A stretch of 62,542 nucleotides of DNA, filler included, from Alphaproteobacteria bacterium (GTDB taxonomy: Bacteria; Pseudomonadota; Alphaproteobacteria; Caedimonadales; UBA9215), in the NCBI GenBank assembly GCA_024280495.1. It is 4 parts of 4 records of this genome, joined end to end, with 100 filler letters (N's around TTAATTAATTAA, not from the genome) between each part and the next. Parts side by side here need not be neighbours in the genome. Positions count along the whole stretch, not along the records: positions 25,146 to 52,872 come from JAJRPZ010000041.1; 3 more parts are not named here. One strand, 5' to 3'. The stretch's first letter is position 1. Each line of letters begins with the position of its first letter. A program made the position numbers and the translations under genes. Shown here piece by piece: positions 25,146 through 30,754 of this stretch. Under the pieces are notes generated by a model. That model saw only the letters and a program-made list of their open reading frames with translations. It was not told the DNA's origin and ran no database searches.

Positions 25146-25349
25146 AATCTGGTGGGGACGACGCTTATGAAAATCTGCGAGGATTTCTGTGCTCTTATCC
25201 TTACTGCCATCATTGGTAAAAATAATTTCAGAAGGTTTGTCCATCTTATCCAAGACGGCTGTTAAGCGTTTGTACATGGTTTCAAGGCATTCCTGTTCAT
25301 TATATACAGGGATAACGACGGAGAGATAAATATCAGATTTTGATGACAT
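25146..25349 (-). CDS. arnC: GT2 undecaprenyl-phosphate Ara4FN transferase, N-terminal part (truncated)
   Basis: LSVVIPVYNE...IIFTNDGSKD; follows arnB. Confidence 0.75.
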
Positions 25350-26584
25350 TATTTATCCTTTTTAAATATTTTTTTAAGGGCGAAAATAACCCGATCTTGT
25401 TGTTCATAAGTCATATGAGGGAACAAAGGCAAGCTCATAATACCATCGGAAACCGTTTCTGCCCTTGGAAAATCACCGCGCTTAAAGCCATAGGTACTCT
25501 TATAGTAAGGAAAAAGATGAATGGCAGGAAAGTGTAATCCAGTTCCGATATTTTCTTCTTTTAAGGCTTGCATGAGAGTATCTCGATTAAGACCAGAAGC
25601 ACCTTCATTCACCAGGATGGCATAAATATGAAAAGGATTTTCATTATCATAAGGGGCGTTACCTGGACGTTCAAATTCAGACCATCCTTTAAATGCCTCA
25701 TGATAGCGAGCGGCAAGCTCTTGGCGTTTAGCGTTGTAATTATCTAGTTTTTTTAGTTGAGGAATGCCAATGGAAGCCTGTAAATCTGACATGTTATATT
25801 TATAGCCAGGGGCGATCACATTAAGCGCTTGGTTGCCTTTTTTGCCATAGCGATCCCAAGCATCTTTATCAATGCCGTGAAAACGCATAACGCGCATTTT
25901 TTTCGCTGTTTCTTCGTCATGAACGGCCAAGGCCCCACCTTCAGCCGTGGTCATATTTTTGCATGGGTGAAAACTATAAATTTGAATATCGCCAAAACTA
26001 CCAATTTTTTTATTTTTATAGCTGGTACCAATGGCATGTGCTGCATCTTCGATAATGCGTAAATTATATTTTTTGGCTAACTCATATAAAGGATCAAGGT
26101 CAACGCTGAGTCCTGTCATATGAACGGGCATAATGGCCTTGGTCTTTGGGGTGATGGCTTTTTCGATTTTCGAAATGTTCATATTATAAGTAGTCTCTTC
26201 AAGGTCCACAAAAACTGGTGTGGCCCCTGCATGAACAATACTGTTGACCGTTGAGACAAAAGTCAAAGGTGTCGTGATAACCTCGTCTCCCTCTCCAATA
26301 TCACAGGACAAAAGAGCAAGGTGCAAGCCTGATGTTGCTGAATTCACTGCAATCACATGAGGCGCACCCGTGTAATTTTTGAGGTCAGATTCAAATTGCT
26401 GCACACGAGGGCCCGTTGCAATCCACCCAGATTTCAAACAGGCCATGGCACTATCCAAGACATCTTGATCCAAGCAAGGTGTTGTGAACGGTAAAAAATC
26501 GTCAGGGCCAATTTCAGGTGTGACGAAATTAATATTTGCGGAAATGGGGGTTTCAGGTGCTTCGTGTGACAAGGATAACTCCAA
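25349..26584 (-). CDS. arnB: DegT/DnrJ-family UDP-4-amino-4-deoxy-L-arabinose aminotransferase
   Basis: FLPF, SGWIATGP, IIEDAAHAIG, SFHPCKNMTTAEGG, PGYKYNMSD, IGTGLHF. Confidence 0.82.
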   Translation of the reverse strand: MELSLSHEAPETPISANINFVTPEIGPDDFLPFTTPCLDQDVLDSAMACLKSGWIATGPRVQQFESDLKNYTGAPHVIAVNSATSGLHLALLSCDIGEGDEVITTPLTFVSTVNSIVHAGATPVFVDLEETTYNMNISKIEKAITPKTKAIMPVHMTGLSVDLDPLYELAKKYNLRIIEDAAHAIGTSYKNKKIGSFGDIQIYSFHPCKNMTTAEGGALAVHDEETAKKMRVMRFHGIDKDAWDRYGKKGNQALNVIAPGYKYNMSDLQASIGIPQLKKLDNYNAKRQELAARYHEAFKGWSEFERPGNAPYDNENPFHIYAILVNEGASGLNRDTLMQALKEENIGTGLHFPAIHLFPYYKSTYGFKRGDFPRAETVSDGIMSLPLFPHMTYEQQDRVIFALKKIFKKDK

Positions 26585-26948
26585 TCATAATAATAATTAT
26601 ACCTATAATACGTGTTGGGCTTAGGGTTTCTTGTAGATAACAATACCCCATAAAAGCTGTGAATATATACCCAAGAGATGTCATGGGGTAGGCAACGCTG
26701 ACATCAACCCTGGAGAGAGTTAAGAGCCAAGCTCCCAAGGAAAAAACATAAAGAGAAATGCCACCAAGAAGGAAGGAATTTTGAATGATTTTAAAGAAAA
26801 TAGGTACGACATTTCCAAAGGTAAAGTCAAAGTGCCCAATGGTGAGCATTCCTTTTTTTATGAGGATTTGCGCAGCCGTATTCAGACTCACGGCAAATAA
26901 AATCAACGCCAGGGAAATTGGCGCCATGGAAAAGAAACCAGAAATCAT
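26553..26948 (-). CDS. SMR/EamA-type undecaprenyl-P-Ara4N flippase subunit (ArnE/ArnF-like)
   Basis: 4 TM, AAQILIKKG, LSRVDVSVAYPMTSLGY; between arnT and arnB. Confidence 0.82.
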   Translation of the reverse strand: MISGFFSMAPISLALILFAVSLNTAAQILIKKGMLTIGHFDFTFGNVVPIFFKIIQNSFLLGGISLYVFSLGAWLLTLSRVDVSVAYPMTSLGYIFTAFMGYCYLQETLSPTRIIGIIIIMIGVILVTRST

Positions 26949-26985
26949 ATTTCAACCTTTTTGATAAAGTCGTGACGTCCATGGG

Positions 26986-28686
26986 TCAAAAATCAAAGAC
27001 CTTGTTCGTTAATATAATATCTTTATCAGATTGAGCAAAAAGATGCAAACCGTTCAAGGAAGGGTAATGTTTGTAAAGATCTTCAAGGGACCATTTTCGC
27101 AAGATTAAATAATAGATTTTTTTGCTTTTAAGGCGTTTTTCAAATTGAGCATCTGTGATCATCCATTCTGAAACATCTTCTACTGTGGTGCCAAAGTGCA
27201 ATTCATTAAATCCTTCAACAACTGTGATACGGCGTCCCGTATAGGGGGGGAGATCTTGATAATAGGTATGCCATGAAATAATGTCATCTTGGGCCTCGAG
27301 AATTTTATTTAATTTTTGCGTAAGGGGGAAAATAGACCTTCCCTCAATATGAACCCATGCTTTATTAAGGGGCAAAAACATGCCCGTAGCCGTACAAAAA
27401 ATTATGACCAAGACGGCCCGCATATTTCCTTTTTTCTGAAAAATAAAGGAAAGAATGATACCAGAAACAAGAGCAATGGTTGTTAGTGCTGCATAGGGCA
27501 TAATATTCATATTGAGGTGTTGTCCCCTAATATAAAGGGCCGTTGGGAGCGCAATGGCAAAAAGAAGAGAAAATAGCTGAAAGAGTCTTATGGGCCAAAC
27601 GTTGTTATTAACACAATTTTCCTCCCAGGTTTTCGTAACACTGCGACCAATAAGAATAGAAAGGGCTGGAAAAATGGGGACTATATAGGGAATGAGTTTT
27701 GAATTTGAGGCTGAAAAAAATATAAAAATGAAGGCGCTCCAAATCAAAAGGAAGGAAAGCGTATGGTGGCGATCAATGCCAGATCTAATAAGTTTAAAAG
27801 CTTGGCTGCATCCTCTATAAAAGTAAGAAATCCAGGGAAAAAAGCCAAAAATCACAACGGGAATAAACATCCAAAAAGGTTGAACGCGACTGTGAGCTGT
27901 GGTGAGGAACCTTAAAATTTGTTCATGGATGATATAAAAATCGAAAAATTCTGGATTACGCAAGTGTGCTAAAACATGCCACGGTAGAGTCAGAGCGAAA
28001 AAAAGAACAATTCCCACGGGATTAAAAGCAAGCTTGAGCGCCGCCCATTTCTTATGGGTGATCGCCCAAATTAAAATAATTGTACCAGGAAGTGCAATTC
28101 CTATGAGCCCCTTGGTTAACAAAGCACCAGCTGCGAAAATAAAAAAACCCATCAAAAGAATGTATTTTTTAACTTTTTGAGCTTCAAAAACAGCCCCATG
28201 GAAAGAAAATAATGAACATGCAATAAGGGCACTGACGGGCATATCCAGAATCAAAATGCGGCTATGGGCGTAATAAAGAAAGGTGGAAGATAGAACGACA
28301 GAGCTTGCAATACCCACATTTCGACCATAAAAACGCCTAGCATATAAAAACGTTGCAAGGCTACCAAGAAGGGCAAAAAAAGCAGGCCAAAATCGCAAGG
28401 CCCATTCATTAATGCCAAAGGCCTTAATAGAAGTTGTTGTGAGCCACATAACGAGAGGAGGTTTTTCAAAGTATTTCACACCATTTAAGCGTGGTGTAAC
28501 ATAGTCGTCAGTCACAATCATTTGCCGCGGGAGCTCTGTATAACGCCCTTCGTCTGGTACGGAGAGAGGGCGCGTCCCAAGAAAAAAACCAAAGAATAAA
28601 GACGTTAAAATCGTCAACCAAAATAGGTCTTTTACCAGTCGCAGCTTTGTATCTGATTTTTTTTCAAATTGTTTGGTTTGATGCAT
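26986..28686 (-). CDS. arnT: GT83 lipid A 4-amino-4-deoxy-L-arabinose transferase
   Basis: PDEGRY.E, PRLNGVKYFEKPPL, LTKG, SKLIPYI; multi-TM. Confidence 0.88.
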   Translation of the reverse strand: MHQTKQFEKKSDTKLRLVKDLFWLTILTSLFFGFFLGTRPLSVPDEGRYTELPRQMIVTDDYVTPRLNGVKYFEKPPLVMWLTTTSIKAFGINEWALRFWPAFFALLGSLATFLYARRFYGRNVGIASSVVLSSTFLYYAHSRILILDMPVSALIACSLFSFHGAVFEAQKVKKYILLMGFFIFAAGALLTKGLIGIALPGTIILIWAITHKKWAALKLAFNPVGIVLFFALTLPWHVLAHLRNPEFFDFYIIHEQILRFLTTAHSRVQPFWMFIPVVIFGFFPWISYFYRGCSQAFKLIRSGIDRHHTLSFLLIWSAFIFIFFSASNSKLIPYIVPIFPALSILIGRSVTKTWEENCVNNNVWPIRLFQLFSLLFAIALPTALYIRGQHLNMNIMPYAALTTIALVSGIILSFIFQKKGNMRAVLVIIFCTATGMFLPLNKAWVHIEGRSIFPLTQKLNKILEAQDDIISWHTYYQDLPPYTGRRITVVEGFNELHFGTTVEDVSEWMITDAQFEKRLKSKKIYYLILRKWSLEDLYKHYPSLNGLHLFAQSDKDIILTNKVFDF

Positions 28687-28800: not shown

Positions 28801-29769
28801 TTAACTTTCGTCACCCACTAATTCTTTTGTTGATTCTAATAACGCGCGACCAAGGTCTGTCATCTGACCATGTTTTTCCACAATGGCAAGACCATCATAA
28901 TACCGTCTTGTATAATTTTCTATTTGCCCCTCAGTAAATTCAGAAGTTAAATGGGTTTGTGCATTATGTGGATAATGAGCTGCTTTTTTGAAAAAATCAA
29001 TCAAGCGCGCCAAAACAAAAACCGCATGATAAATGCCTGATATTGGCCTAGGGTCTTTACGAAGAGGACTTGAAAAAAGTCCATCACCAGAAATAATTTC
29101 ATCATTTGCCATCAGATTGTAAAGATACTGATGTGCCGTTTCATGGATAAGGTAATCCATGGTCATGGGAATATCATGTTTATCGGCAAGGGTTACGAGC
29201 CCTAACAAAGAAAAACTTGAACCCGCGATGAAACGTTTTGAATTAAGAATCAAAACTGCTGAAACGAGAGCCTCACATTCCTTATAATAAACTGGGGAAA
29301 TCTTTTTGATGTCTTCGAATGCTTTCTGTACATAAGATTTCGCACGATCAAAGGCTTCTGGTGTTGACGATTGAACCGTTGATTTCTCTGGAAATTCAGA
29401 AACAAGAACGTTTTTACAAGAATTTTCAAGACTTTTTGGAATCACTCCATGGTTAAAGGAGAAAACTTCGAAAAGTGCGATGTTATCAGGTACTGAAAAC
29501 TGACAAAATAGATTTTTTACTTTTTGGTAATTTTCGTCTTCAATGGCCTTGATAAGCTCATCGTTTAAAAGGGAAAATAAAAAAAGTGTTTCAGGGTCTT
29601 TTTTAAGTTTTTGAAGGCTATCTATAAAATGCTCTTGCTCGACAACCGACAGCAGTTCTGATGCTGCTTCGAGAATATGAGATAAACCATCAAATAAGCA
29701 GTTCTGATTTTCTTCTACCAAAAAAAAAGCGCGATCCCCGCAGGGCCGCGCATTTGAATAAGAAAACAT
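28801..29769 (-). CDS. stand-alone HEXXH-motif (aKG-HExxH-type) peptide-modification enzyme
   Basis: GSSF, LIHETAHQYL, SSPLRKDPRPISGIYHAVFV match the HExxH...PxRxDxRP..G..HA pattern of this family. Confidence 0.85.
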   Translation of the reverse strand: MFSYSNARPCGDRAFFLVEENQNCLFDGLSHILEAASELLSVVEQEHFIDSLQKLKKDPETLFLFSLLNDELIKAIEDENYQKVKNLFCQFSVPDNIALFEVFSFNHGVIPKSLENSCKNVLVSEFPEKSTVQSSTPEAFDRAKSYVQKAFEDIKKISPVYYKECEALVSAVLILNSKRFIAGSSFSLLGLVTLADKHDIPMTMDYLIHETAHQYLYNLMANDEIISGDGLFSSPLRKDPRPISGIYHAVFVLARLIDFFKKAAHYPHNAQTHLTSEFTEGQIENYTRRYYDGLAIVEKHGQMTDLGRALLESTKELVGDES

Positions 29770-29771
29770 TA

Positions 29772-29837
29772 CTACACTACTGTTGTAGATAGATTGTTTT
29801 TATTTGAAAAAATATTAGAAAGAGAATTTTTTTTCAT
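29772..29837 (-). CDS. putative 21-aa peptide MKKNSLSNIFSNKNNLSTTVV (candidate precursor), not in ORF track
   Basis: GGAG RBS 8 nt before ATG; ends TAG TAA, with the TAA overlapping the HExxH ATG (TAATG). Confidence 0.5.
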   Translation of the reverse strand: MKKNSLSNIFSNKNNLSTTVV

Positions 29838-29863
29838 TTTTTTGTCTCCAATTATTTGTAAAC

Positions 29864-30754
29864 TTACAGGGTTATTTTTGTTTTTGTCAGAAAAATTTCT
29901 GATAAGGCATAAAATAAATCATTTATCATCTTTGCACCAGCATTTTTTTTAGATGCAAAGAAAAAAACATCTACAGACGGAGGAGGGAGATCTGGCAATA
30001 TAGTTACTAAGCCAGCGTCAAAAGAAAAATCTGCACCAGTTACTGAGATGCCATATCCCAAAACCGTTGCATAAAAGACACACATTGCTGAATTGACAAC
30101 CAAACTTGGCTCTAAAATTTGTCCCCCTGATTTTAAATGCCAATCTACATTGCCATTAAAATTATTTTTGGTCAAATAGAATCCTATAAGCTTATGATCT
30201 TTTAAATCCTCAAAGGATTTGGGAACACCATATTTCTCCAAATATTTTGGGCTTGCTAATAAACGCATTTCAAAACTATAAATCTTTTTCTTAACAACAA
30301 GACCAGGATCATCTATTGTTGGCAGCAATGCCACGTCTGCATCAGTCTTAGAAAGCGCGATACTCTTATTAGTGGTCTCAATGAGGATATTAACATCAGG
30401 ATATTTTTCAATAAAACCTCTCAAGCGTGGCATCAACCATAAGCTTGTCATTCCAGTTGTTGTAATAATCTTAATAGACTTTTTAATAGATTCTTTGTTA
30501 TGTTTTACACGACTCACTGCATTTTCAATGATCATATAAGAATCCACAATGGATTCATAAAGTTCACGCCCCACATCGGTGAGTTCAACACCGCTTTTAA
30601 GGCGTTTCATCAAAACCTTATTTAAATCATGTTCAAGGGCAGTTAAAGATTTAGTGACCGTCGACGTTGCAAGGCCTAATTTCTTGGCAGCTCTTGAAAA
30701 AGAGCCACATCTAATGACTTCAACAAAATACTGTAAAGGTTCCGAATAAATCAC
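29864..30754 (-). CDS. LysR-family transcriptional regulator
   Basis: YFVEVIRCGSFSRAAKKLGLATSTVTK...LE..L...LMKR....VELTDVG; ASPKYLEKYGVPK..EDLKDH. Confidence 0.93.
   Translation of the reverse strand: MIYSEPLQYFVEVIRCGSFSRAAKKLGLATSTVTKSLTALEHDLNKVLMKRLKSGVELTDVGRELYESIVDSYMIIENAVSRVKHNKESIKKSIKIITTTGMTSLWLMPRLRGFIEKYPDVNILIETTNKSIALSKTDADVALLPTIDDPGLVVKKKIYSFEMRLLASPKYLEKYGVPKSFEDLKDHKLIGFYLTKNNFNGNVDWHLKSGGQILEPSLVVNSAMCVFYATVLGYGISVTGADFSFDAGLVTILPDLPPPSVDVFFFASKKNAGAKMINDLFYALSEIFLTKTKITL

Follow-up and report, generated by a model that had tools for sequence, protein, structure and literature searches.

We describe here a small, previously unannotated gene that lies on the minus strand of the window (the whole 62,542-nt stretch of DNA analysed) between a gene for a LysR-type transcriptional regulator and a gene for a stand-alone aKG-HExxH oxygenase. 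This open reading frame (ORF) probably codes for a 21-residue precursor peptide, and the adjacent Fe(II)/2-oxoglutarate-dependent HExxH oxygenase is probably the enzyme that acts on it. The relevant part of the window, positions 25146–52872, lies on one contig (G000:C64) of a metagenome-assembled genome of 1.14 Mb in 99 contigs, with 39.5% G+C and 89% completeness; the remainder of the window consists of N or of other contigs, and order across these borders is not evidence. The features of the locus are as follows.

30754..29864, minus strand: LysR-type transcriptional regulator gene, 296 aa, GTG start, with Pfam domains HTH_1 and LysR_substrate
29849–29846, minus strand: Shine-Dalgarno (SD) sequence GGAG, read from the sequence, with an 8-nt spacer to the peptide ATG
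29837..29772, minus strand: putative precursor-peptide gene, 21 codons, ATG at 29837 and TAG at 29774–29772, from the ORF listing and the homologous ORFs
29801–29797, minus strand: run of five A within the peptide ORF, where insertion of a further A would join the ORF in frame to the enzyme
29771–29769, minus strand: second in-frame stop TAA, whose last A is the A of the enzyme ATG (TAATG); candidate translational-coupling site
29769..28801, minus strand: stand-alone aKG-HExxH oxygenase gene, 322 aa, matching TIGR04267
29720..29751, minus strand: RNA hairpin followed by T9, inside enzyme codons 7–17; candidate attenuator, terminator or mRNA-end stabiliser

The LysR stop codon and the peptide ATG at 29837 are separated by 26 nt. 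A sequence-only reading of this region had pointed to the unannotated ORF at 29837–29772 with its GGAG 8 nt upstream, its TAG-TAA end, and the overlap of the TAA with the enzyme ATG, and all of these lie on the minus strand at the positions listed. It had also remarked that the enzyme start has no evident ribosome-binding site of its own, in agreement with which no GGAG-like site is found in the sequence ahead of the ATG at 29769.

The small ORF is a conserved gene

Comparison with related loci indicates that the small ORF is a real conserved gene, and is neither a chance ORF nor a frameshifted N-terminus of the enzyme. The related loci were drawn from genome contigs, an order-level genome search and metagenome contigs, with duplicates removed, and 21 distinct loci have sequence available upstream of the enzyme gene (L102 was dropped, its contig starting inside the gene). 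At 16 of the 21, the enzyme gene is preceded by an ORF of 16–50 codons that has an SD-like site (GGAG, GAGG, AGGA or AAGG), ends 2–24 nt before the enzyme start, and encodes a peptide with threonine as the third residue from the C-terminus; these are the window and loci L001, L002, L003, L004, L096, L091, L097, L099, L005, L008, L011, L101, L105, L116 and L006. The C-terminal residue is valine or isoleucine in 14 of the 16 peptides, and the L005 peptide ends in T-F-R. The frame of the small ORF relative to the enzyme varies among the homologous loci, with gaps of 2, 6, 8, 9 and 13 nt. In genome G022 there is, in addition, a paralogous module (L091) that comprises a separate LysR gene, a 21-codon ORF and the TAATG junction.

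Conservation within the peptides is concentrated in two parts, a leader-like N-terminal motif (residues about 2–14) and a C-terminal T-x-V that includes an invariant Thr19. Residues M1, K3 and T19 are invariant in a nine-sequence peptide alignment (A4), the consensus of which reads K-I-D-L-x-K-x-F-S-x-K-N toward the N-terminus and T-T-x-V at the C-terminus. ORFs placed in this manner are rare in the window's genome; an SD-preceded ATG ORF of 16–30 codons abuts the start of 2 of 676 long ORFs, and the small ORF is one of these two. The sequence-only reading had proposed a gene in its own right, separate from the enzyme, and this is upheld by the small ORFs upstream of the homologs, which are separated by stop codons and lie in varying frames, and by the lack of the peptide stretch in any homolog N-terminus. 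Its description of an internal K-N-x-L-S duplication fares less well: a K-x-x-L/F repeat at positions 3–6 and 13–16 is shared by six genus-level peptides, but is absent from the 22–23-aa subgroup and is not general.

The enzyme is a stand-alone member of the aKG-HExxH family

The 322-aa enzyme has no Pfam match. It does match the TIGR04267 profile (aKG-HExxH-type peptide beta-hydroxylase; IPR026337) with 71 bits against a cutoff of 40, over residues 149–312 and profile positions 3–175 of 177, confirming the earlier assignment to stand-alone aKG-HExxH proteins. A protein search returned 21 relatives besides the window's own protein, one of them labelled Holosporales. The N-terminus, including ARPCGDRAFFL, aligns with homolog N-termini in comparisons with 17 and with 61 homologs, and the enzyme start at 29769 is therefore right. 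The HExxH motif corresponds to H209-E210-x-x-H213, and among 62 sequences H209, E210, H213, R241, P242, H248, V252 and R255 are invariant and R237 is nearly so. Searching the family profile against PDB structures recovers ChlH (8s5f; E 2.5e-19), whose HExxH, R-x-x-x-R-P and G-x-x-H-A residues fall in the matching columns. An AlphaFold2 model of the enzyme (pLDDT 95.8) retrieves 8s5f_A in Foldseek over its whole length (E 1.5e-11, TM 0.75/0.71, 353 columns), followed by SjiH (22ob; E 1.9e-07), with unrelated folds appearing from E 0.056. The HExxH residues, and downstream histidine and arginine residues common to ChlH, reportedly bind Fe and 2-oxoglutarate (Morishita et al. 2024). Taken together, score, motif and predicted fold place the enzyme firmly in the aKG-HExxH family, with the corresponding predicted activity.

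The original TIGR04267 description is said to associate the family with FXSXX-COOH (FxsA/FxsB) systems. Such a system was considered for this locus and set aside; there is no radical SAM gene present and the peptide ends in T-x-V. A second HExxH paralog upstream of the enzyme in the distant loci was likewise considered, and was ruled out by tblastn. At L004 (L004:3986–4919, with the same DNA in L085, L092, L095 and L098) a frameshift or an assembly error has left the HExxH gene in two overlapping ORFs, of 147 aa and 205 aa. L004 keeps an intact LysR gene and peptide ORF, and in its close relative L096 the enzyme is intact.

A modelled enzyme–peptide complex

The complex of enzyme and peptide was modelled using an enzyme alignment (A2) and a peptide alignment (A3), and scores 0.70 compared with 0.01 for the best control. 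A score of 0.70 is reached by 116 of 157 solved complexes and by 2 of 215 mismatched pairs, counts that are a rough guide here given the custom alignments and a partner of fewer than 30 residues. At least 91% of contacts are shared between the runs, and the partner pLDDT is 72 or higher. In the model, peptide residues 1–2 and 4–21 are all in contact with the enzyme; among the contacts of highest confidence, residue 19 contacts H213, H248, G245 and residues 183–184; residue 18 contacts 183–187 and 121–122; residues 12–14 contact 220–221; and residue 10 contacts 24, 27 and 69. In this arrangement the invariant threonine is positioned at the metal histidines and the N-terminal helices hold the leader motif; the model thus supports binding. 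These contacts would fit a division into leader and core, within a peptide of just 21 aa with no evident cleavage site.

The LysR regulator and the conserved module

The peptide–enzyme pair together with a dedicated, orthologous LysR gene is, from the comparison of loci, a conserved module of a Holosporales-like clade of alphaproteobacteria and of a few other intracellular-type lineages. The window LysR has clear HTH_1 (1.6e-16) and LysR_substrate (2.3e-17) Pfam domains and reaches no NCBIfam equivalog cutoff, the best being YafC with 120 bits against a cutoff of 470. We searched 80 genome loci, most of which are distant stand-alone HExxH genes (from Verrucomicrobia, Bradyrhizobium, Dongiaceae, Sphingomonadaceae and others). 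Using the window LysR as a phmmer query, an ortholog is found as the upstream neighbour in all nine of the nearest loci (E 1e-107 to 1e-48), and the other 71 contain a single, unrelated LysR. Orthologs are also present at L090 and L091 (E 5e-34 and 3e-35) and upstream in L096, L097, L101, L105 and L116; a LysR-like C-terminus is seen upstream in translated frames, with no score, in L086, L088 and L089; and L099 has no LysR within the 1 kb available upstream. The earlier suggestion of a LysR–peptide–enzyme module thus gains from an orthologous, same-strand LysR upstream in the related loci examined. Within the order the enzyme is present in 10 of 23 genomes, including all five of the window's genus (that of the window among them) and all four of a second genus.

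The distance from the LysR stop to the peptide start is 5–56 nt in the window's genus (5–8 nt in L001, L004 and L096) and about 130–200 nt in the sister clade, and the short spacing in the window's genus makes the three genes look like a single operon. LysR regulators are typically, and not obligatorily, arranged divergently from a target gene, with a T-N11-A box in the shared promoter; here the LysR gene is co-directional with the peptide gene. Two LysR-type genes are detected in the window genome by tblastn with the window LysR, the one at 29864–30754 and another at G000:C43:16177–17013.

A full-length EamA transporter gene is located directly upstream of the LysR gene, overlapping its start, in eight distinct loci (L005–L008, L011, L097, L105 and L116). 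It belongs to the sister lineages and is not part of the modules of the window's genus. The sequence-only reading had stated that the locus has no radical SAM, protease or exporter gene; this is true of the window, where the neighbours include neither a leader peptidase nor a nearby radical SAM gene, but does not extend to the sister-lineage modules with their EamA transporters.

The remaining neighbours change from locus to locus, and include methyltransferase, photolyase, MutL and chemoreceptor genes; in the window, alaS lies upstream of the module and is divergent. Downstream of the module (25349–28686, minus strand) are genes for an ArnT-like transferase, a half-size EamA protein of 131 aa and a DegT/ArnB-type aminotransferase, which resemble an Arn-type envelope-modification cluster. 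The ArnT-like protein is a homolog of the lipid A aminoarabinose transferase with 206.9 bits, below the equivalog cutoff of 567. These genes were considered as part of the module and rejected, as they are not conserved in L001–L004.

An RNA hairpin inside the enzyme gene

Beginning 18 nt after the enzyme ATG there is a G+C-rich stem of 9 bp (29751–29743 with 29738–29729) with one bulge, followed by T9 at 29728–29720. A corresponding hairpin, built from the A-L-P and x-R-A codons, is present in L001–L005, L008, L011, L091, L096, L105 and L116, with a weaker U-run in L001, L002, L005 and L008. We compared the stability of each with 500 permutations of synonymous codons within the same gene. The number of permutations that equal or surpass the native hairpin is small for the window (15/500), L001 (1/500), L002 (0/500), L003 (2/500), L005 (4/500), L091 (1/500) and L008 (30/500), which thus stand out, and is large for L011 (136/500), L006 (397/500) and L007 (267/500), which do not. 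Among 14 distant loci, L051 (8/500) and L014 (34/500) alone beat the permutations. The hairpin is thus not a feature of the whole family, and it is also lacking in genus g7 and in L006.

When 12 sequences are placed in one register, 84% of cells are paired, a figure that drops to 67% or less once the partner columns are shifted; compensatory changes are seen in 4 of 11 pairs, and the covariation score is 0.313 against 0.170 for shuffled alignments, with none of 500 shuffles reaching 0.313. The sequences are related to one another and the register of the L001 group is shifted by two, so that this evidence for conservation is supportive and not conclusive. At enzyme position 8 the window has Arg (CGG) where its relatives have Leu (CUU/CUC), matching the CGC Arg codon on the other arm; as read from these codons, this is an amino-acid substitution that keeps the stem paired. 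A simple terminator between LysR and the enzyme was rejected, since the hairpin lies within the coding sequence of a conserved protein. We infer that it may act as an attenuator or an mRNA-end hairpin, such that expression of the peptide would be favoured over that of the enzyme.

A larger family of precursor-like peptides

A far larger precursor family, as yet without a name, seems to include the window peptide as a shortened form. When the 1 kb preceding the enzyme is scanned in plus-strand frames, 44 of the 80 genome loci show the strict motif L[DN]xxx[LM][LFVI]G (at least two of these loci have rows that are not upstream precursors, namely the single row of L006 and one of the two of L026). 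In the controls, the motif turns up at 0 of 80 loci when the opposite strand is scanned and at 2 of 80 when the downstream sequence is. In the distant loci the motif-bearing ORFs encode 40–60 aa with a K/G-rich tail. Three Rhodobacteraceae-type loci, L034 (Aliisedimentitalea), L061 (Amylibacter) and L032 (Maritimibacter), encode peptides that start much like those of the window type, and from their sequences appear to bridge the window-type and longer kinds. With this shared motif and the bridging peptides, the window peptide looks like a minimal member, consisting of the leader motif and a seven-residue tail. None of 14 peptides tested has a meaningful Pfam or NCBIfam match.

Several other features of the distant loci were observed. 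Two or three tandem precursor-like ORFs of the L-D-W-S-x-L-L-G-F type lie upstream of the enzyme in L014, L016, L023, L035, L036 and L045, and also in L060, L064, L068, L069, L074 and L077, with single ORFs containing the motif twice in L060 and L064. A protein of about 320–350 aa with no Pfam or NCBIfam match is encoded divergently upstream of the precursor genes at distant stand-alone HExxH loci, for example at L012:2494–3453, L014:223–1182, L017:2607–3566 and L020:2616–3659 (all on the minus strand); single-linkage clustering groups 38 such ORFs from 32 of the 80 loci, including at least one antisense artefact, and the protein may be a further partner of the family. Directly downstream of the enzyme, adenylation-thiolation-thioesterase or ATP-grasp proteins are encoded at L013:4955–8371, L015:4649–8068, L038:4192–6222, L028 and L030, which hints at further tailoring of the K/G-rich precursors.

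Proposed mechanism and alternative explanations

Gene order, conservation, enzyme family and modelled docking were computed, and from these we infer translational coupling, leader docking and Thr19 oxidation in the following scheme. The LysR protein, encoded immediately upstream on the same strand, would be the regulator of the module. The peptide would be translated from its own strong SD sequence, and translation of the enzyme would be coupled to that of the peptide through the TAATG overlap, with the hairpin and U-run just inside the enzyme ORF probably lowering enzyme expression relative to that of the peptide. The N-terminal motif (of the K-I-D-L-x-K-x-F type) would serve as a short leader that docks on the N-terminal helical part of the enzyme, and the C-terminal T-x-V tail would lie along the strand at residues 183–187, bringing the invariant Thr19 to the iron centre formed by H209, H213 and H248. 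Thr19 or its immediate neighbour would then be oxidised, either by side-chain hydroxylation or by an alpha-hydroxylation like that of PflC/PosC that cuts off a C-terminal piece; both chemistries are compatible with a target held at a constant distance from the free C-terminus. The EamA-type small-molecule exporter of the sister lineages suggests a small final product that leaves the cell, and a released tail would be such a product, fitting both this exporter and a LysR that binds small molecules.

A more speculative extension, which we consider rather unlikely, is that the module is a self-contained signalling circuit, in which a peptide oxidised in dependence on O2, Fe(II) and 2-oxoglutarate, or its C-terminal fragment, is the co-inducer of the LysR protein and is exported by EamA where this is present. 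The exported product would then be a signal from cell to cell or from symbiont to host, and the variable middle residue of T-x-V would make the fragment specific to a lineage.

Several observations weigh against assigning the peptide as the substrate of the enzyme. Expression, translation and modification of the peptide at this locus are all predictions from sequence and modelling. Threonine is not among the targets reported for the family to date, which are His, Asp, Phe, Gln and Pro (PMC13060819) and, in a Q-to-N substrate variant, Asn (PMC12636437). The pattern breaks down in five of the 21 related loci, and the peptide is thus not indispensable in every lineage: there is no similar ORF upstream of the enzyme in L086 and L090, the L088 ORF has 19 codons and a different C-terminus, and in L007 and L089 the ORF runs 8–11 codons beyond the T-x-V-like position and overlaps the enzyme start. 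Among six 21-aa peptides nonsynonymous differing codons outnumber synonymous ones, reflecting fast evolution outside a few fixed positions, and selection thus appears concentrated on those few. The related loci are kin, and the counts overstate their independence. Finally, the window module is without a protease or an exporter among its neighbours, and a tblastn search of the window genome, which is 89% complete, found nothing orthologous to the EamA of the sister clade.

Other explanations of the small ORF differ greatly in how well they account for these data. A chance ORF in an AT-rich spacer might be supposed from a genome of 39.5% G+C in which many ORFs of 20–30 codons are listed in the region, and we regard this as negligible in view of the 2 of 676 long ORFs with an abutting, SD-preceded short ATG ORF and the recurrence with conserved residues in 16 distinct loci. 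An assembly error is scarcely more credible: the metagenome-assembled genome is in 99 contigs and an error would be plausible at a homopolymer, and a true run of six A at 29797–29801 would fuse the two ORFs by a single base and turn the small ORF into an N-terminal extension of the enzyme. One public read run (0.15 of words) yields contigs at 29003–29258 and 29844–30013 with zero differences, and 29797–29801 is outside this coverage; among the runs listed as carrying this sequence there was none from RNA. The homologs argue strongly against an error, as none of 17 in one comparison and none of 61 in another has the extension, their N-termini align to M1 of the 322-aa ORF within a few residues, and their own small ORFs are separate, closed by stops, and in varying frames at varying gaps.

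It is also conceivable, if fairly improbable, that the ORF is a regulatory upstream ORF (uORF) which, with the hairpin and U-run, tunes read-through into or translation of the enzyme gene, the real substrate being encoded elsewhere. The G+C-rich hairpin and T9 so close to the enzyme ATG, with their compensatory changes, would suit such a role, as would an enzyme ATG that has no SD sequence of its own and overlaps the second stop of the ORF, and a module from which exporter and protease are both missing. Hairpins after precursor genes are usual in peptide-modification operons, however, so that the hairpin fits both explanations and does not discriminate between them. What speaks against a uORF is the nature of the conservation, with the Thr at –3, the C-terminal V/I and the K-I-D-L-type motif kept across peptides that differ at many nucleotides, and with a motif common to the 40–60-aa peptides upstream of distant family members; moreover, the model puts Thr19 at the metal site with a score far above the controls. 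A still more doubtful proposal is that the peptide is made and not turned over; it would instead inhibit the enzyme, belong to it as a stable small subunit, or be bound unmodified by LysR. The extensive modelled contacts are equally compatible with tight binding, and the co-occurrence of the LysR gene with a ligand, but the invariant threonine sits on the catalytic histidines in the model, and all members of the enzyme family studied in the available accounts modify adjacent peptides (PMC12636437, PMC13060819). A precursor modified by its neighbouring oxygenase thus remains the explanation that we favour.

Significance of the module

To our knowledge, aKG-HExxH oxygenases have been recognised only recently, and the characterised members are found in large multi-enzyme clusters. 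The kind of enzyme described here is already known; what appears to be new is a class of 16–23-aa precursors with Thr at –3, the minimal peptide–enzyme unit, its fixed partnership with an orthologous LysR gene, with or without EamA, and the intragenic hairpin. The aKG-HExxH family would thus also form two-gene peptide–enzyme units with unusually short precursors, a fixed (predicted) Thr target position and a co-inherited LysR regulator of their own, and the module has been retained in a 1.14-Mb genome with just two LysR genes. Through this locus, a large and so far unannotated family of putative precursors comes to light, encoded beside stand-alone HExxH genes in many phyla. If the predicted threonine chemistry is correct, it would provide the family with a new substrate residue, or with a second case of oxidative C-terminal cleavage, and would offer enzymology a very small and easily synthesised substrate. 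The link to a regulator is a route to the biological role of such products, and if the signalling proposal were true, the module would be a sensor based on peptide hydroxylation, or a new chemical type of autoinducer, in genome-reduced intracellular bacteria.

Comparison with known systems

Our search of the literature, which covered texts other than subscription papers and PDF supplements, found no paper that links HExxH enzymes with LysR regulators, and none on the subfamily of the window enzyme. The pathways for PQQ (PqqA) and mycofactocin (MftA) also start from very short precursors, of about 20–30 aa, whose conserved residues lie at the C-terminus or close to it. By analogy, the short precursor described here may give rise to a small molecule rather than a peptide, and an EamA-type exporter would suit such a product; unlike those systems, this module has no conserved radical SAM enzyme, peptide chaperone or peptidase.

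The closest structural relative, ChlH (the HExxH domain of ChlBH, PDB 8s5f), has the same fold and motif residues as the window enzyme. In ChlBH, this domain shares a polypeptide with a radical SAM cyclophane synthase and hydroxylates Asp and His of a pre-cyclised peptide (PMC12636437), whereas the window enzyme is stand-alone with no radical SAM gene nearby. The sequence-only reading had taken proximity to radical SAM enzymes as typical of aKG-HExxH proteins, and this is corrected by the published stand-alone enzymes PflC/PosC, PesO and BpmH (PMC12636437, PMC13060819). In these reports the aKG-HExxH enzymes act on adjacent precursors, some of them in a leader-dependent manner with recognition of a C-terminal motif (PMC12636437, PMC13060819). 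PesO, from the nitrilobacillin cluster (PMC13060819), and BpmH, from the biphenomycin clusters (PMC12636437), each modify a ribosomal precursor by hydroxylating a single residue close to a conserved motif at its C-terminal end. They do so within multi-enzyme clusters that include MNIO enzymes, peptidases and transporters (PMC13060819, PMC12636437), whereas the module described here is minimal and has its own regulator.

A further comparison is with PflC/PosC of Pseudomonas, for which alpha-hydroxylation of a small residue within a C-terminal motif is also described; this cuts the backbone and leaves an amide (PMC12636437). The PflC/PosC precursors are long, with nitrile-hydratase-like leaders, Gln runs and an ARMD tail, compared with 21 aa and a T-x-V tail here, and their clusters add an MNIO-nitroreductase, a GNAT protein and two transporters, whereas LysR alone is conserved here (with EamA in the sister lineages) (PMC12636437). 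The target predicted here, Thr or its neighbour, also differs from theirs. The likenesses concern the architecture: in both, a stand-alone HExxH oxygenase adjoins its precursor, a putative one here (PMC12636437). The dependence of PflC/PosC on an N-terminal leader and their recognition of a short C-terminal motif have a predicted counterpart in the leader motif and T-x-V tail of the window peptide, and the structure model of PflC/PosC places the C-terminal motif at the iron, as in our model of the complex (PMC12636437).

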